The notes under the pieces: model-generated
Told to the model about the DNA's origin: nothing
Database searches by the model: none
What the model saw: the letters and a program-made list of their open reading frames with translations, nothing else
Origin: an uncultured Alphaproteobacteria bacterium
GTDB taxonomy: Bacteria > Pseudomonadota > Alphaproteobacteria > Rhizobiales > Rhodomicrobiaceae
Length of the DNA: 64,000 nt
Assembly (NCBI GenBank): GCA_963817705.1
Contig: CAWFPF010000007.1
Span: forward strand, 7,275-71,274
Direction of reading: 5' to 3'
Program-made: the position numbers and the translations under genes
Shown: positions 6,705 through 47,376 of the stretch, piece by piece
Layout: each line of letters opens with the position of its first letter
Position numbering within the stretch: the first letter of the stretch is position 1

Positions 6705-7278
6705 TTACGCGTTTTGCGGCGATTTGTCTCGGCTCCCATCGCCGGGAGCAGTCCAACTCCGATCAACTTCAAGGGCGATGGGTTCGGCAAACGGAATTCC
6801 GGCGCTGAAATAGGTCAAAAGTGGCTCGCCGCCGAGAAGCGCGCGGATGACGCGGATGGGTCCCGCATGAGTGATGGCGAGCACCGGCGGTCCGTCCGGT
6901 TCAAGTCCGCTCAACCAAGCCTCACAGCGGCTGGCCATGGCGCTAAGCGTTTCTCCGTTCGGTGGCGTGGAGTTCTGGCAGGCCGCGCTGCCACGTCTCG
7001 ACGGCGTTGCGGCCGATATCGTCCCAAAGGCGGCCTTCCCAATCGCCGAAATCAAGCTCCCGGAGGAGCGGCTCGATGGCAAACGAGGCGCCGAGCCTCT
7101 TAGCAAGATCGAGCGCACGGCAGGCGGGGCTGGTTACAATCCGGCACCCGACGGCGTATCCGGTCAGGCTTGTTGCTGCGGCCTCCAACGCTTGGGGCTC
7201 GCAGTCGAGATCGAGCCGGCCATAGCAAAGCCCCGTCTCGCAAATGGGCTTGGGATGGCGCACCAAAATCAAGCGCAC
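6705..7278 (-). CDS. cobC: Histidine phosphatase family, CobC-like alpha-ribazole phosphatase (one apparent +1 frameshift at 6970-6975)
   Basis: GTG 7278 gives MRLILVRHPKP...CYGRLD...ELDFGDWEG; continues in a second frame PPNGETL...ITHAGPIR. Removing one base from GAGTTC joins the frames. Downstream of cobS. Confidence 0.8.
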
Positions 7279-8018
7279 GTTGCGGCACCGAGAAGAAAGA
7301 CGATCTCGTACGCTTGCTCGACCGCACCCAGCACGTCGCCCGTATATCCTCCAAGCAGGCGCCGCGCCAACAGAGTTGCCAGCCCGGCAGCAATTGCCGC
7401 CGCGAGCAGAGCCGGCACAGCCATCCAGCCCGGCAGTAACAGGAGAGGAAGAATGCCTGAGCCCAGGGCGACGGCAAGGTCTGCTTGCGTGATCCCTTCG
7501 CCCAGAGGCTTGATCTTCGCGGCCGCGATTCCGCCTGAATAGGGGAGCGTGGAGATCACGCCAACAGTGGCGAGCCGTCCGCCTGCATGCGCCGCGACAA
7601 GGCATGCCGCACCAGCGAGGACCGGGAGCGCGGCCAGTGCAAAAACCTTGATCCCGATGCCGGCGCCGAGCGCAAGAACGCCATAGGTGCCGAGACGGCT
7701 GTCCTTCATGATGGCGAGCCGGGCCTCGCGGGTCGCCCCGCCCATGGAGTTGAAAAAATCGGCGAACCCGTCCTCGTGCATGCCGCCAGTGATGGCGATG
7801 CCGGCTGCGATCGTAAGCAGAGCCGGCAGCGGTTCGCTCCAAAGTTTCGATCCGCCCAGCAGAATGGCTGCGCATAGCGCGCCGACCAGCGCGCCCGTCA
7901 GCGGAAAATACTTCACGCCGCGTTCCATCCACTCCCCGGAAAACCCGTCCACCTCTGGAACGGGAAGCCGGGTCAAGATCTGGACGGCCGCAAGGAAGTA
8001 TCTGAGTTCTGCGTGCAT
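7269..8018 (-). CDS. cobS: Adenosylcobinamide-GDP ribazoletransferase
   Basis: LTRLP, TGGMHEDGFAD, MKDSRLGTYG and GGYTGDVLGA motifs. Confidence 0.95.
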   Translation of the reverse strand: MHAELRYFLAAVQILTRLPVPEVDGFSGEWMERGVKYFPLTGALVGALCAAILLGGSKLWSEPLPALLTIAAGIAITGGMHEDGFADFFNSMGGATREARLAIMKDSRLGTYGVLALGAGIGIKVFALAALPVLAGAACLVAAHAGGRLATVGVISTLPYSGGIAAAKIKPLGEGITQADLAVALGSGILPLLLLPGWMAVPALLAAAIAAGLATLLARRLLGGYTGDVLGAVEQAYEIVFLLGAATCA

Positions 8019-8021
8019 TGG

Positions 8022-9056
8022 CTAGTTTGGATGGGGGCCGGGCAAATCGGCCATGTCATTCAGCAACCCCTCCGCCATGCGCACGAGCGGGATGGCGAGC
8101 GCGGCACCGGTGCCTTCGCCAAGCCGCATGCCGAGATCGAGAAGCGGCGCGGCGCCAAGCCATTCGAGGAGCGCACCGTGGCCAGCTTCCGGGGAGCGGT
8201 GCGCAAAAATGGGATAATCGCGCAGGTTTGGCTCGATGGCGATCGCCGCGCAGGCCGCCGCTGTTGCGATGAATCCATCCACGATCACGATTTGCCTTGC
8301 CCTCGCGCCGCCTATCATTGCGCCTGCAAGCATGACCATCTCGAAGCCGCCGAACTCGCGCAACGCATCGCGCCCGCCCCGAACGGGTGCGCGGCGATAG
8401 GCGCGCGACAGCACATCGCGCTTATGGCCGAGACCCGCCGGCGGTGCGCCCGCGCCATTTCCGATGAGCGTGTCAAGCGGCAAGCCGGTCACGCTATGCG
8501 CGACGATAGCGGCCGCGCTCGAATTGCCGATGCCGATTTCGCCAAGCGCGAGAATGCCGAATCCCTTGGCGTGCAAGGACGCGGCTACGTCCGCACCCGC
8601 TTCGAGGCCCTGCGCAAGCTCCGCCTCCGTCATGGCCGGCCGCAGGAGGAAATTGTCCGTGCCGCTGAGGATTCTCTTCGAGATCAGCGCATTGTTCGGC
8701 AGCGGCGCAATTTTGAGCCCCCCGTCGATTAGAAAAACATCGGCGCCGGCAGCACGCGCCGCGATATTCGCCCCAGCCTTGCCTTCAAGCACCATTTGCG
8801 CGATCAAGGCCGAAACTTCGGACGGGTAAGCGGTCACACCCTCCGCCACAATCCCATGGTCGCCGGCGAAGATCGCTAGCGCAGCGCGCCCAAGGCTGGG
8901 CTTCAAGGACTGGGTCACAAGACCAATATGCAGGCCAAGCGCCTCTATACGGCCAAGCGACCCGAGCGGCTTCGCTTTCGCTTCAATAGCGGCCTTCAGA
9001 CGCGGCTCAATTTCGCGCGCGAGAGGCGTAACACACTGGTTGTTTCCGGTATCCAT
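8022..9056 (-). CDS. cobT: Nicotinate-nucleotide-dimethylbenzimidazole phosphoribosyltransferase
   Basis: KPLGSLGRIE, FAGDHG, GEIGIGN and LDLGMRLGEGTGA motifs. Confidence 0.95.
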   Translation of the reverse strand: MDTGNNQCVTPLAREIEPRLKAAIEAKAKPLGSLGRIEALGLHIGLVTQSLKPSLGRAALAIFAGDHGIVAEGVTAYPSEVSALIAQMVLEGKAGANIAARAAGADVFLIDGGLKIAPLPNNALISKRILSGTDNFLLRPAMTEAELAQGLEAGADVAASLHAKGFGILALGEIGIGNSSAAAIVAHSVTGLPLDTLIGNGAGAPPAGLGHKRDVLSRAYRRAPVRGGRDALREFGGFEMVMLAGAMIGGARARQIVIVDGFIATAAACAAIAIEPNLRDYPIFAHRSPEAGHGALLEWLGAAPLLDLGMRLGEGTGAALAIPLVRMAEGLLNDMADLPGPHPN

Positions 9057-29549: not shown

Positions 29550-30104
29550 TTACCCGTCATCCCCCGGGTAATCTTCGCCGAAGAGGGCCGCAACAGGCAC
29601 TTCCATACCCGGCGGATTGAATGTCAGCGTGCTTGAAGCACCCATGATCGCGGTTACAATCGTCCCGTCCGGCCCGCGTCTATGGTGCAAAACGGAGCGA
29701 TCCTCGATTGTCACCAAAAGGTAATGCTGGATCGAGGGATGCCGGAAGTATTGCTTGAACTTCAACGCGAGGTCCCGCCGCTCGCTGGAGGGAGACACTA
29801 CTTCCACGACAATGACAGGGGTTGGCGCGATCAAGCTCGCGCGCGGCACCCGCTCTCCGCAATTGACGAGCGCATCGGGCTCGAAAACCGTCTCGTCGTC
29901 GATCTTGACGCCCAAACTATCGACGAACGCCTGACATTTGAGCCCATTCGATTTGATGGCGGCTTCCAATGCATTCGCGACACGCCTTTTCACGTCGCCA
30001 TGCTCCGCACGTTCGGGCGCCATCGCCATGATTTCCCCTCGCGCGAGTTGATAGCGGCCGCGCTCCTGACGCTCGGCCCAAGCAAGGAAAGTGTCCGCGT
30101 TCAT
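29550..30104 (-). CDS. Uma2 family (DUF820) PD-(D/E)XK-like endonuclease
   Basis: YQLARGEIMAMAPE, FEPDALV and VVEVVSPSS motifs; start may be GTG 30128. Confidence 0.88.
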   Translation of the reverse strand: MNADTFLAWAERQERGRYQLARGEIMAMAPERAEHGDVKRRVANALEAAIKSNGLKCQAFVDSLGVKIDDETVFEPDALVNCGERVPRASLIAPTPVIVVEVVSPSSERRDLALKFKQYFRHPSIQHYLLVTIEDRSVLHHRRGPDGTIVTAIMGASSTLTFNPPGMEVPVAALFGEDYPGDDG

Positions 30105-30416
30105 TTTTTGTTTCGCTGTCGGTTGCACCGGATAAGAATACCATTGGCAAGATGCGCGCCGCAATAGGAGTGCTTAAGCGCTAGCAGGTTTGGAGAGGTA
30201 ATAACGAGCCTGCACCAAGCAGAAGAGACGGGGGAGCGCTCTCCGCAGCCATTGGACGGCAGTAAGGTTGGCGAATCCTGACGCAGCCCCGGGTGCTTGC
30301 TGTACAATCTTTTTGTGATGAGCGGCGCCTTTCTCTTGCCTTTTTGGCGCTGAGGTTCCTTCTAAACGCAATGAAGAGACTCGCCGATGGCGGCGAGATA
30401 CGCAAAACGGTGGTGG

Positions 30417-30761
30417 ATGAGAACTTTCAAGGAAAAAGACTTTAGCGAGCGCCTCGCGGCGGCGGCAAAGGCCAAGCAAGCGGCGCTGCAGCAATTCGCC
30501 GAACGGCAAGCGAACGAAGACCCGGCCGCTCTTGCAAGGAAAGCGGCGCGGATGGACGCAGCCAAAGCCCGCGCGGCGCGGGCGGCGGAGCGTGAAGCGA
30601 AAAAGCTCGAAGAGAAGGCGCGTCTGGCCGAGGAGAAGGTTCGGAAGGCGGCGGAGGCCGAGCTTGAGGCAGCTCGGGCCGAGGAACGGAAGGTGGCACT
30701 TGCCGCCGAGCAGAAAGCGGCGCGGGATGCGCGGTACGCGGCGCGGAAGGCGAAAAAGTAG
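30417..30761 (+). CDS. DUF6481-like Ala/Lys-rich helical protein
   Basis: FSERLAAAAKAKQAAL...KAARDARYAARKAKK. Confidence 0.82.
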   Translation: MRTFKEKDFSERLAAAAKAKQAALQQFAERQANEDPAALARKAARMDAAKARAARAAEREAKKLEEKARLAEEKVRKAAEAELEAARAEERKVALAAEQKAARDARYAARKAKK

Positions 30762-30885: not shown

Positions 30886-31242
30886 CTATTGAGGAAGTTT
30901 ACGCATGCGAATGCGTTTGGGCTCAATGACGGAAAAATGTCCGGCCCAATCTTCGCGTTCCTCGATGCGCAACGCTAGCTTCCTACCGGCGGTAGACGGC
31001 GCAGGCATGGAAACGCGGAAGAGAATGACGCCAGACGCCGCCGGGAGGCGGGCGCGCCACGCAAGCTCCCCGAAGTCCTTATCGAACGTAATGAGAATCC
31101 GCTCGTCGCGCACGGCCCAGGCCAGAACATCCGAATCCTTAATACCCGGAGCTGCGGTTCGCACCCAGGTCACGTCGTGGCCGCTCCGTCGAAGAGCGTC
31201 CACGGCGGCACGCGGAAAATTCTCGTTAGCGAGAAAACGCAT
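30886..31242 (-). CDS. DUF5615 PIN-like toxin
   Basis: MRFLANENFP...GHDV...RILITFDKDFGEL; directly downstream of DUF433. Confidence 0.88.
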   Translation of the reverse strand: MRFLANENFPRAAVDALRRSGHDVTWVRTAAPGIKDSDVLAWAVRDERILITFDKDFGELAWRARLPAASGVILFRVSMPAPSTAGRKLALRIEEREDWAGHFSVIEPKRIRMRKLPQ

Positions 31243-31243
31243 G

Positions 31244-31474
31244 TCACGCCGCACTCGGGTAAACTTTTTCCGAGCTTAATATGTCCCGAGCATAGCCTAG
31301 ACACGCGGCGATATCTTCGTGCGTAAGACCCTGGTAATTGTCTAATATGTCCGCCTCGCTCCAGCCTTCGGCGAGAAGGCCGATGATAAAATCCACAGCA
31401 AGCCGCGTCCCTGTGATGACGGGCTTTCCGGCGAGAACGGCAGGGTCGAGGGTGATGCGCGCGTGGTTAGACAT
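31244..31474 (-). CDS. DUF433 antitoxin
   Basis: RITLDPAVLAGKPVITGTRLAV...YQGLTHEDIAACL. Confidence 0.92.
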   Translation of the reverse strand: MSNHARITLDPAVLAGKPVITGTRLAVDFIIGLLAEGWSEADILDNYQGLTHEDIAACLGYARDILSSEKVYPSAA

Positions 31475-31539
31475 TTTCGTTCCTCACCACAATCATGTTA
31501 GACGGATTTTGCAAAAAGCTCCATACGGGAGAGTGACTG

Positions 31540-32288
31540 TTGGCAGGTCAAAGATTTCAGGGTCATTGCTCAGTAAGTCCGCTGCGTAGGCTAATTCTTG
31601 CTCTTGGCCTTATCGCAGGCCTCGCCGGCAGTGCGCGCAGCGAGCCTCTTATCTTCCATGCATCCACCTCGGGGCAGCAAACTCAGGATCGAGGGGAAGG
31701 AGGGGGCAATCCGTTTGCCAGCTCCCTTATTGAGATTCTTCAACTTAAAGAGGTGCGGCTTGCGGGCTTGCCCCAGATGCTGCGAAGGCTCACAATTAAT
31801 AAAAGCCAAGGCCAGCAAACCCCTGATGTTCCAAGATCTGTTTTTCGTCAAGATTGGAAGCTCGTTCCACCGCTCGCCAAAGAGAAGCGAATCGCCCTTA
31901 TCTAGTTGTTTCTAATTATCGAGAGTCCGATGCACAATCGTTGCCGGGTGCGGCGCTCGATGCTCGTCGCATCGGCTCAGCTCTGACCAGCGCGGGGTTT
32001 ACTACGGACATCGCATTGGACTTCAAACTAATTGAAATGAGAAAGAAACTGAGTGAGTTCGCAGACGCTAGCGCCAACTATGAGGTTTCGGCCATTTATA
32101 CGACCGGACACGGAGTGGAATCCAACGGAACTGTCTATCTGATACCAGGCGATTTTCCAGTGCAACAGGGCAATTCGGCCTTGCCGGGGCATGCTCTGCC
32201 GCTGTCCGAGATCGCTCAGGCGTCTCGTGCCAAGAAGGTAAACTTGATATTCTACGGTGGCTGCAGGGACGATCCTCTGGCCAACTGA
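31540..32288 (+). CDS. Secreted circularly permuted caspase-like (C14) peptidase; one base missing near 31900
   Basis: Signal peptide, then a p10-like block (LIFHASTSG...NPFASSL...QQTP), then a p20-like block (KRIAL/LVVSNY...TGHG...YLIP...GGCRDDP) in the -1 frame; stop 7 codons after the Cys. Confidence 0.78.
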
Positions 32289-32381
32289 AGTGCATGAGAT
32301 TGAGCCATGGGTTGACGCGCGCCTCCGCCGTCCACATAGTCGCCACATTCGCCATCCCGCCCAACACGAACGGCACACATA

Positions 32382-33980
32382 ATGACCGCCGCCGCGCAAT
32401 CGCCCGCAGAACTCGCCGCAACCTCCAAGGCCTGGCCCTTCGAAGAGGCGCGGAAGCTCCTGAAACGGCTGGACAAGCGCGATCCGGCTCGCGAGGTGGT
32501 GTTCGAGACCGGCTACGGCCCGTCCGGCCTGCCGCATATCGGCACCTTCGGCGAGGTCGCGCGCACGTCCATGGTGCGGCACGCGCTCGAAGTGCTGCGG
32601 CCGGGCGTGAAGACGCGGCTCGTCTGCTTCTCCGACGACATGGACGGGCTGCGCAAGGTGCCCACCAATGTGCCGAACCAGGAGCTGCTCAAAGCTGCGC
32701 TCGACAGGCCGCTGACCGCGGTGCCTGATCCGTTCGGCACGCATTCCAGCTTCGGCGCGCATAACAACGCGCGGCTGCGGGCTTTTCTCGATAGCTTCGG
32801 CTTCGAATATGAGTTCCTGTCGTCCACCGAGTGCTATCGCTCCGGCATTTTCGACGAGACGCTGCTGCGCATGCTCGAAGCCTACGACAAGGTGATGGAG
32901 ATCATTTTGCCGACGCTTGGGCCGGACCGGCGTGCGACCTATTCGCCGTTCCTGCCGGTTTCGCCCACGTCAGGTAAGGTGCTGCAGGTTCCCATCGAGC
33001 AGCGCGACCTCAAGGCCGGCACCGTCTTCTATACCGATCCCGATAGCGGCAAAAAGGTCGAGACGCCGGTCACGGGTGGCCATGTGAAGTGCCAGTGGAA
33101 GGCCGATTGGGCCATGCGCTGGGTGGCGCTCGGGGTCGATTACGAGATGGCCGGCAAGGACCTGATCGACAGCGTCACGCTGTCCTCGAAGGTTTGCCGC
33201 GCGCTTGGCGGTACGCCGCCCGAGGGCTTCAATTACGAGTTGTTCCTCGACGACGGCGGGCAGAAGATTTCCAAGTCGAAGGGCAACGGCATCGCGGTCG
33301 AGGAATGGCTCGCCTATGCGACGCCGGAAAGCCTCAGCCTCTATATGTTCCAGAAGCCGAAGACGGCGAAGCGGCTGTATTTCGACGTGATCCCGCGTGC
33401 GGTGGACGAGTATTTCTCGCTGCTGGAAGCCTATCACAAGGAAGCGCCGGAGCAGCGGCTCAACAACGCCGTCTGGCACATTCACAGTGGCACGCCGCCG
33501 CAGCATCATGTGCCGGTGAGCTTTGGGCTGCTATTGAACCTCGTCAGCGCCTCCAACGCACACACCAAGGAGATCCTCTGGCAGTTCGTGCGCAACTACG
33601 CACCGGAGACGAGCCCGAAGGACTTCCCGGAACTCGACCGGCTGATCGGCTTTGCGATCCGCTATTTCGAGGAACGCGAAAAGCCGTTCAAGGTCTATCG
33701 GGCGCCTACGGAGTTGGAGCGCGGGGCCATGCTCGATCTCAATGAGCGCTTGGCGGCGGCCAACGCGGACAAGAGCGCGGAAGAGCTGCAAGCTATCGTC
33801 TATGAGGTTGGCAAGGCGCACCCCTTCGAGAATTTGCGCGACTGGTTCAAGGCTCTGTATGAGGTGCTATTCGGCGAGAGCCAGGGACCGCGCTTCGGCT
33901 CGTTCATCAAGGCGTACGGGCTCGAAAACACGCGCGCGCTGATCGCCGGGCGGCTGCAAGACGCGGCTAAGGCGGCCTAA
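32382..33980 (+). CDS. lysS: Lysine--tRNA ligase, class I
   Basis: [22 protein letters not shown] and GPRFGSF motifs. Confidence 0.97.
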
Positions 33981-45675: not shown

Positions 45676-45933
45676 ATGAGTGACATCGAAAACCGTCAGC
45701 TGCTGCATCTGGTGTTCGGTGGCGAGCTGAAGTCCGTGGACAGCACGGAATTTCGCGATATATCCGCGCTGCACATCCTTGGCGTTTACCCAAACTATGC
45801 CTCGGCCTACGACGCCTGGAAGGCTGCAGCTCAGCGCACAGTAGATAATGCGCTCATGCGTTATTTCATCGTGCACATGCATCGCTTGCTCGACCCCTCG
45901 ACCGATCCCGCACAGAGCAATCCCGGCGCCTGA
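45676..45933 (+). CDS. DUF4170 domain protein
   Basis: LHLVFGGEL...YPNYASAYDAWKAAAQRTVDNALMRYFIVH. Confidence 0.9.
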   Translation: MSDIENRQLLHLVFGGELKSVDSTEFRDISALHILGVYPNYASAYDAWKAAAQRTVDNALMRYFIVHMHRLLDPSTDPAQSNPGA

Positions 45934-47376
45934 TGACGGACTCCGCTCCCATAAAGCGCGGGCCACGCGATACGGATGAAGCAGCGATGGACGAAACGGC
46001 CAACGAGGCGGCGGGCCGGTTTCAGCGCACGGGCAACGGCGGTTGGGTTCCGCGCGGCAAGACCGGCGGGTCCAACGGGTCTGGCCTTCTGCTGACCCTC
46101 TACCGGGGCGCCACCTGGGCGGCGCGCCCCGTGGCCATGCCGATTTTGCGCCGGCGCGCGGAACAAGGCAAAGAAGTGCCGGCGAGGCTTTCCGAGCGCC
46201 TTGGCATTGCGACGATCCCCCGGCCCGCCGGCCCGCTCTTCTGGTTTCACGCGGCGAGCGTCGGCGAGACGAACGCGGTGCTGCCGCTCATGCATAAGCT
46301 TAGGGAAAGCTACCCGGCGCTCAATATCCTGCTGACGACCGTCACCGTGACATCGGCCAAGATCGCCGCGGAACGGCTCCCGAACGGGGCGATTCATCAA
46401 TTCATGCCGCTCGATAGCCCGCGCTTCTGCCAGCGCTTCATCGAGCATTGGCGGCCCGATCTTGGACTTTTCACCGAGTTCTGAAATCTGGCCGAATCTC
46501 ATCGTCGAGGCGAGCAGCCGCAACGTGCCCCTGGTGCTCGTCAATGCGCGGATGTCGCAGCGATCCTGCAAGCGATGGGCCCGGCTTTCGAGCCTCAGCA
46601 GACCCGTGTTTTCGCGTTTCGATCTGGTTCTGACGCAGAATGGGCGGTTCGCCCAACGTCTCACCGGGCTTGGCGCTCCGGCAGCGCTCGTCACTGGCAA
46701 CCTGAAATACGACTCCCCCCCTCCGCCCGTGGACATGCGCGCCGCGGCGGAATTGCGGCGCAGCGCCGGGGACAGGCCCGTGTTTCTGGCCGCGAGCACG
46801 CATCCCGGCGAAGACGAGGTGGCCGCGCGCGTGCACGAATTGCTACAAGCCGCAATGCCCTCCTTGCTGACGGTCATCGTCCCGCGCCACCCCAATCGCG
46901 GCGAAGCCATCGCTTCGCTTCTCGGCGAGCGGCACCTGCCAGCCGCCCGGCGCTCGGCCCGCGAGCCAGTGACAGGTGAAACGCAGGTCTACCTTGCCGA
47001 TACGATCGGCGAGTTGGGGCTGTTCTACACACTTGCGCCGCTGTCTTTCATAGGCGGGTCGCTGGTGGTCCATGGCGGGCAAAACCCCATCGAAGCGGTG
47101 AAGCTCGGTTCCGGCGTTCTGAGCGGCCCGCATACCTTCAATTTTGCCGAGACCTATTCGGTCCTTCAGCACCACGAAGGCTTCAAACTTGTCGTAGGCC
47201 CGGACGATCTCGCCGCCGCGCTCCGGAGACTGTTCGAGAACCCCGCCGAGGCGGAGGAGATGAAACGCCGGGCGGCGGCAGCTATCGGTACGCTTTGCGG
47301 GGCGCTCGAAAAGACGCTGGAGGCGCTGAAGCCCTATCTGTCCGCCGCCTTTGGCACAGCGGTACATGCCGCTTGA
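45933..47376 (+). CDS. waaA: 3-deoxy-D-manno-octulosonic acid transferase (apparent +1 frameshift at 46476-46481)
   Basis: WFHAASVGE in frame 1; removing one T from GAGTTC restores ESEIWPN; ASTHPGE, VPRHP and GGQNPIE follow. Confidence 0.93.

Follow-up and report, generated by a model that had tools for sequence, protein, structure and literature searches.

Caspase-fold proteases are normally inactive until the linker between their two parts, p20 and p10, is cut; the reverse caspases rev-caspase-3/-6, in which the parts are swapped, were reportedly engineered by Srinivasula in 1998. Engineered caspases with the p10-p20 order are constitutively active single chains that adopt the active fold without cleavage (PMC7760212). 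In nature, the p10-before-p20 order has been described for type III metacaspases from algae that carry secondary plastids, such as Guillardia theta GtMC2 and Phaeodactylum PtMCA-IIIc (Choi & Berges 2013, PMC3734836; PMC8455989); the algal enzymes depend on Ca2+, process themselves and are specific for Arg (PMC8455989). For Bacteria and Archaea, a 2019 survey that covered 11,208 prokaryotic p20 proteins reported no type III architecture (PMC6426788), and a literature search, with subscription journals outside its reach, produced no paper on a bacterial permuted caspase. The canonical bacterial homologues (PF00656; orthocaspases and bacterial type I metacaspases) encompass p20 followed by p10, with a linker of about 25–28 residues in between and an Asp two positions upstream of the Cys (Cys-2), and are usually larger, multidomain proteins of 300–1000 aa; the orthocaspases are defined by the lack of p10.

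The gene described here is located in the window (the entire stretch of DNA that was analyzed, 64,000 nucleotides) and probably encodes an exported caspase homologue that is circularly permuted by nature, its frame break being an artefact; considered on its own, the circular permutation, with the p10-like part placed ahead of the p20-like part, is almost certain. The protein and its relatives (hereafter, the permuted family) share with the type III metacaspases a natural caspase fold, the position of the p10 part N-terminal to p20, a predicted His-Cys dyad and an acidic residue close to the beginning of p10. However, type III metacaspases are eukaryotic and intracellular, whereas the permuted family is bacterial, carries a predicted signal peptide and is much shorter. 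The Cys motif of type III metacaspases is of the D-x-C-H-S-G type, in contrast to the G/A-G/A-C-R-D-N-P-F motif of the permuted family, of which the C-R-D-N-P-F portion is common to the canonical bacterial “DACR” homologues. In the window protein, Pfam models did not detect a metacaspase-type p10 (the N-terminal half has no match), and the Cys motif is G-G-C-R-D instead of the metacaspase type.

The engineered reverse or permuted caspases (cpCasp2; PDB 8vp4 and 9c2y) resemble the permuted family in the succession of a small-subunit part, a short connector and a large-subunit part, in having the termini where other caspases carry the activation linker, and in being the best full-length structural matches; but they are man-made from Asp-specific animal caspases, dimeric, and only 15–16% identical to the permuted family, which is natural, apparently exported, and different in the S1 pocket residues. 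With the canonical bacterial homologues, the family has in common the same fold and the motifs R-[IV]-A-L-[VL]-[VI], L-x-G-A-x-x-D-A, G-H-G, C-R-[DSN]-N-P-F and, downstream of the Cys in the canonical order, G-x4-D...N-S-P-F, but it forms its own group in a tree of p20 domains; unlike the orthocaspases, it possesses a p10-like part, at the N-terminus.

Organization of the locus

Two overlapping open reading frames (ORFs) on the plus strand, 31540–31905 and 31854–32288, are a single gene that is divided by a 1-nt frame break (Table 1). ORF 1 starts with TTG, encodes 121 aa and ends with AKEKRIALI; ORF 2, in the frame one base back from that of ORF 1, reads LVVSNY...YTTGHG...FYGGCRDDPLAN up to its stop codon (in a longer reading, ...LVVSNYRESDAQSLPGAALDARR...AIYTTGHGVE...NLIFYGGCRDDPLAN). 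The two ORFs fuse as KRIAL-I-LVVSNY when one base is counted as missing at the break; KRIAL of the p20-like module comes from the frame of ORF 1, up to 31899, and LVVSNY and the remainder come from the frame of ORF 2, starting at 31902. The p10-like module consists, in this order, of the strand EPLIFHA, the GQQTQD...GGGNPF loop, two helices and the QTPDVP...WKLVPP strand, and includes the Asp that is invariant in the family (codon 31687–31689). Re-reading of the sequence placed the conserved His (YTTGHG; codon 32109–32111) and Cys (FYGGCRD; codon 32262–32264) exactly where the original prediction had them, with the gene ending, as also predicted, 7 codons past the Cys. The upstream promoter-like site matches the consensus in 9 of 12 positions; the consensus scan found three such sites in the region, against 0.6 expected.

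Table 1 Features of the permuted caspase gene and its upstream region (window coordinates)
Feature	Position	Strand	Remarks
Promoter-like site TAGACA-17 nt-AATCAT	31468..31496	+	About 44 nt 5' of the start codon; weak
Shine-Dalgarno-like GGGAGAG	31527..31533	+	6 nt 5' of the TTG; read from sequence
TTG start and 34-residue Sec-type signal peptide MAGQRFQGHCSVSPLRRLILALGLIAGLAGSARS	31540..31641	+	Predicted cleavage site precedes the conserved Glu
p10-like (small-subunit-like) module and connecting segment	31642..31881	+	HMM of the N-terminal part and structure model
p20-like catalytic module	31885..32285	+	PF00656 match; His and Cys invariant in alignment A1
Frame break	31900..31905	+	Window ATCTAG; second assembly with one more C
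Stop codon TGA	32286..32288	+	Read from sequence

A family of intact permuted proteins

The two pieces of the window gene were read through as one protein and searched against 41 related genomes. Intact permuted homologues, on which the original prediction depended, do exist. Single-frame orthologues that align nearly end to end, with 60–63% identity, were detected in three genomes of the same genus (loci L001, L002 and L004), whereas other matches, about 16 of them in the window's own genome and many more in other genomes, cover the C-terminal half only and represent ordinary caspase paralogues. The gene is present in 4 of the 25 genomes of the genus, and the search for closer relatives found no intact one above about 66% identity.

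Beyond the genus, the 232-aa L001 protein matches at least 244 clusters in a large protein collection; those listed are mostly 230–255 aa long, match over nearly the full length, and are annotated at most as “caspase family protein.” At E ≤ 1e-30, an exhaustive profile search of 1.84 billion representative sequences yielded 245 clusters (50% identity level), most of them 220–260 aa long and matched in one stretch. In a pattern scan of species-representative genomes, the permuted family was found at 80 loci in many phyla, the carriers including Hyphomicrobiales, Hyphomonadaceae, Sphingopyxis, Acidobacteriota, Nitrospirota, Gemmatimonadota and Bacteroidota, along with Geomonas, Thauera, Zoogloea, Lamprocystis, Thiomargarita, cyanobacteria and others. 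Cultured strains among the carriers include Geomonas paludis Red736, Thauera sinica CGMCC 1.15731, Lamprocystis purpurea DSM 4197 and Sphingopyxis sp. H073. In the alignment of 82 family members (A1), the invariant residues are His176, Cys227, Arg228, Arg102, Asp35, Gly30 and Gly41 (numbering of the intact orthologue). These proteins make up a widespread bacterial family that has apparently not been described before; its members are small, with a mature length of about 215 aa, and are predicted to be Sec-exported, caspase-fold (MEROPS C14-like) cysteine peptidases.

In one protein of the representative set, P0224 (565 aa), the permuted module (residues 313–526) is preceded by a lipoprotein-like N-terminus and by a region in which esterase-like motifs were recognized by eye; the module is thus found in multidomain proteins as well.

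Homology of the N-terminal half to p10

In the canonical arrangement of C14 domains, the order is p20, linker, p10; this arrangement is absent here. The original prediction held that the order is inverted and that both halves belong to a caspase domain, with the Pfam profile for Peptidase_C14 (PF00656) to be applied to each. This profile recognized the C-terminal half of the window gene (profile positions 10–107 of 233, E = 5.6e-9, 36.5 bits against a cut-off of 21.4; 52.4 bits for the intact orthologue); the N-terminal half, scanned by itself against Pfam, gave no match. When the L001 protein was de-permuted artificially, by placing the N-terminal part behind the C-terminal part, the span of the PF00656 match grew from 1–106 to 1–211 of 233, although this adds only about 4 bits to the score. 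Among the NCBIfam models, there was a weak, sub-threshold match of the p20 part to caspase_w_EACC1.

The N-terminal part of alignment A1 was turned into an HMM, with which the complete set of 14,528 six-frame ORFs from the window's genome was searched. Apart from the self match, the best matches were to caspase paralogues, each about 28 residues past the end of the p20 match (p20 550–679 and N part 707–780, E = 4.4e-6; p20 56–187 and N part 215–289, E = 2.9e-5; p20 476–605 and N part 633–706, E = 4.7e-5), and about 10 weaker matches showed the identical p20-then-N-part geometry. In other genomes, the N-part profile also matched 3' of p20 in canonical genes adjoining family members and, likewise, after p20 in tandem-domain proteins. 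These profile matches show that the N-terminal half and the p10-like part of ordinary caspases are homologous, and the de-permutation and the structure model, as two further independent tests, agree. The inverted order, p10-like and then p20-like, is borne out by the geometry of these matches, by the structure model and by the full-length match to permuted caspase-2 (see below).

The alternative, namely, a truncated, p20-only orthocaspase preceded by a secreted domain of unrelated origin that resembles p10 by chance, is very improbable. It would accord with the lack of any Pfam match in this half and with the many bacterial caspase homologues that have been reported without p10 (PMC3734836, PMC6426788), but the matches of the N-part HMM are nearly all in caspase paralogues and always downstream of p20, the motif G-x4-D...G-N-x-P-F is common to the N-terminal part and the canonical relatives, and the structure model matches circularly permuted caspase-2 over its full length with a TM score of about 0.7, compared to about 0.45 for p20-only matches.

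Predicted structure

The AlphaFold model of the intact orthologue, obtained with alignment A1 as the input, has a pLDDT of 91.9 and a pTM of 0.88. The order of the elements in the model, a signal helix, a strand, a loop, two helices and a strand, followed by strand-helix-strand-helix-strand (GHG)-hairpin-helices-strand (GGC), is that expected for p10 and then p20; the Asp/Glu/Gly-rich loop LDQGEGGGNPF is modeled with a lower confidence (about 72) than the rest. In a Foldseek search of the PDB, which aligns structures sequentially, the top four matches were to the engineered circularly permuted caspase-2 (8vp4, 9c2y), with TM scores of 0.69–0.73 over about 241 columns, whereas natural caspases and MALT1 aligned over about 140 columns only, in the p20 half alone, with a query TM score of about 0.45. 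There were 147 PDB matches with E ≤ 0.001, and all the matches among the 50 that were listed are caspases or MALT1. The model and these matches support a caspase-type alpha/beta fold with a six-stranded sheet, and, in the model, the N-terminal half completes this fold by taking the place of p10, as the original prediction required and as is also indicated by the permuted caspase-2 being the best match. A search of PDB sequences with the family profile gave only weak p20 matches, to caspases and MALT1 and not to metacaspases, and was of no use in mapping the p10 part.

The frame break

An internal ORF of 83 aa from the C-terminal half was found on one other contig, contig_38660 of a metagenome assembly (ENA ERZ25039472; locus L093), which, by sequence comparison, is a second assembly of the same population. 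Over the gene, L093 (2490–3270) and the window (31530–32300) are 99.6% identical and differ at three positions. At the break, L093 has ATCCTAG where the window has ATCTAG, and is in frame; 22 nt downstream of the break, L093 contains an extra A inside GAGTC (window 31923–31927), which breaks its own frame; and at 31734, the first base of GATTC, there is a G in the window and an A in L093. Thus, each of the two assemblies is intact where the other is broken. The differences at 31734 and 31923–31927 both fall in CcrM-type GANTC motifs and fit methylation-linked base-calling errors, whereas the break itself is not at a GANTC site. Two other genes in the window are also split in two frames, namely, waaA (45849–47373; at position 98/99 of the Pfam Glycos_transf_N profile) and a cobC-like gene (6708–8055, minus strand; at position 106/109 of the Pfam His_Phos_1 profile). 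The broken waaA, the gene for Kdo transferase, suggests indel errors in the assembly rather than biology.

Among the causes originally considered, an error, a pseudogene and a recoding site, a sequencing or assembly error is the best supported, given that L093 is in frame and that waaA and cobC are split too, and the break is very probably of this origin. Inactivation of a once-functional permuted caspase by a real 1-nt deletion, which would make the gene a true pseudogene, is improbable. The window sequence as given does carry the break, outside of any GANTC motif, the patchy presence of the gene in the genus implies that it is dispensable, and split copies exist in two other metagenome-assembled genomes (L039, 1282–2014, and L051, 5917–6652), where family members are divided into two overlapping ORFs, perhaps by further assembly frameshifts or by real decay. 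All this notwithstanding, the nearly identical L093 is in frame here and broken elsewhere, at a GANTC site; the window copy, other than the break, keeps every residue that is invariant in the family; and the split waaA and cobC suggest that indel errors are frequent in the assembly.

Next to no credence can be given to recoding, in which a programmed -1 ribosomal frameshift would regulate the production of the full-length enzyme: passage from the first to the second frame would indeed need a -1 shift, but 31894–31905 lacks a slippery heptamer of the X XXY YYZ form, uninterrupted frames encode all orthologues as well as about 75 members of the family from other genomes, and L093 is in frame at the break.

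Genomic neighborhood

The gene for class I lysyl-tRNA synthetase (lysK) starts at 32382, 94 nt downstream of the caspase gene, and this gene order is kept in related genomes; in the Rhodomicrobium-like group, the caspase gene is located upstream of those for class I lysyl-tRNA synthetase, a DUF952 protein and dihydroorotate dehydrogenase. Across 83 loci, no conserved partner gene was found, the synteny being lineage-specific only, and a search for defence systems with PADLOC gave no match. The lysyl-tRNA synthetase is 532 aa long in the window (32382–33980) and 462 aa long as called on L093 (3557–4945), which may reflect another start call or another indel difference.

On the minus strand, directly upstream of the caspase gene (30886–31474), there is a toxin-antitoxin-like pair consisting of DUF433 (31244–31474) and DUF5615 (30886–31254), with the Pfam labels taken from the gene table of the sister contig, L093; the same table identifies a putative restriction-endonuclease-like gene of the Uma2 family (PF05685) at 29550–30164, minus strand. 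The window (30387–30761, plus strand), L001 (3225–3599) and L002 (3172–3681) all encode, near the caspase gene, a conserved small protein rich in Lys, Ala and Glu, M..RWWMRNFKEKGF...AARKAKK; its gene is upstream of the caspase gene in the window but downstream of it in both L001 and L002, which implies a local rearrangement.

Predicted export signal and new termini

The signal peptide that had been predicted at the N-terminus was recognized both in the window and across the family. The window protein begins with a signal-peptide-like sequence, LRRLILALGLIAGLAGSARS, followed by EPL; by sequence rules, its start, RRLILALGLIAGLAGSARS followed by E, combines a positive region, a hydrophobic core and small residues at -3 and -1. 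A hydrophobic core is apparent in 79 of the 82 aligned members, with small -3/-1 residues among which AxA is the commonest combination, and the first conserved (mature) residue, directly ahead of the first strand, is Glu or Asp in 75 of the 82. At the other end of the protein, the chain stops 5–7 residues past the Cys in 73 of the 82 members. Because the chain ends there and the mature N-terminus is right at strand 5, the new termini are placed at the linker position of ordinary caspases. In the canonical relatives, about 25–28 residues separate C-R-D-N-P-F from the next strand; this segment corresponds to the intersubunit linker and is the very piece that is missing from the permuted family.

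Catalytic residues and predicted activity

Both the His after strand 3 (G-H-G) and the Cys after strand 4 are invariant in A1 (82 of 82) and are kept in the window. The replacement of DACR by GGCR, which had been noticed in the window sequence, turned out to be a family-wide trait: the Cys-2 position is occupied by Gly or Ala in the permuted family versus Asp in the canonical relatives. Given this substitution, the specificity may differ from that of the canonical relatives, in line with the altered P1 preference that was proposed originally. Alignment of the p10-loop Asp (G-x4-D; D35 in the orthologue) suggests that it equates with Glu500 of MALT1 and with the p10 Asp of metacaspases, and the retention of this p10-side Asp in the putative S1 pocket suggests a basic P1 residue and a modified pocket.

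In the proposed mechanism, the p10-like part comes first and would supply strand 5, the S1/S3 loop with the invariant Asp, two helices and strand 6, and the p20-like part would follow with strands 1–4, the His and the Cys. No cleavage of a linker would be required, as in the engineered p10-p20 reverse caspases; competence would be gained upon loss of the signal peptide during export, and the site of action would be the periplasm or the outside of the cell.

There is perhaps an even chance that the activity is independent of cleavage, a reading based on analogy with the engineered forms. The permuted order by itself is no proof of constitutive activity because the type III metacaspases, which have the same order, need Ca2+ and autoprocess. 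Caspase-fold enzymes of the legumain and GPI8 types are able to act as processing enzymes or transpeptidases. It is conceivable, albeit unlikely, that the permuted proteins are catalytically competent without being always-on degradative proteases, that is, that they are processing enzymes or transpeptidases, or depend on a cofactor (Ca2+) or on a further cleavage. Apart from the example of the type III metacaspases, such a possibility is favored by the altered S1 pocket and by the lower confidence of the Asp/Glu/Gly-rich loop in the model, but a compact protein of one domain whose termini fall where the linker would be resembles the engineered constitutively active forms.

Origin of the permutation

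In a tree of p20 sequences only, which included 112 permuted and 45 canonical domains, all permuted domains fall on one side of a single branch with an SH-aLRT support of 100. This tree left out 22 rows of unclear architecture (fragments and p20 domains without a detectable p10, including the window's own C-terminal half), and when these rows were kept in, there were 11 changes of the “permuted” label; the canonical rows, the top profile hits together with paralogues from the window's own genome, are a biased sample. Within this sample, the tree is consistent with a single origin of the permuted proteins. The C-R-D-N-P-F motif that they have in common with the bacterial DACR-type homologues suggests that the permutation occurred independently of the algal type III metacaspases.

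Four secreted tandem proteins (P0197, P0233, P0235 and P0259) have the p20-p10-p20-p10 architecture, and the permuted profile matches them continuously across the first p10 and the second p20; judging by this match, such proteins could be duplication intermediates. Under this scenario, a tandem p20-p10-p20-p10 protein would have shed both outer parts to give rise to the permuted form. The complete reading, in which a bacterial “reverse caspase” evolved independently from tandem proteins, needs no activating cleavage, matures solely through export and removal of the signal peptide, and has a rebuilt S1 pocket that confers a new specificity, is put forward tentatively.

The genome that contains the window is rich in caspase paralogues, with about 28 caspase-domain ORFs; one of these, C2_1_0_48751 on contig C2 of G000 (643 aa), encompasses two tandem caspase domains, with p20 matches at 91–222 and 400–537.

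Implications

For the window's genome, the break in the caspase gene is probably an artefact of error-prone long-read assembly. At the level of the family, the p10 model employed in the 2019 survey (PMC6426788) would miss the permuted proteins because their N-terminal half has no Pfam match, and the family would fill the prokaryotic gap that the survey left. With the putative duplication intermediates still present in the databases, the duplication route to circular permutation can be examined cleanly in this family, which can also serve structural biology and biotechnology as a very small, single-chain caspase scaffold. If the proposed mechanism is true, evolution has reached the same route to always-active caspases that protein engineers took, exchanging the two parts and dispensing with the linker, and the coupling of activity to export would spare the cytoplasm.
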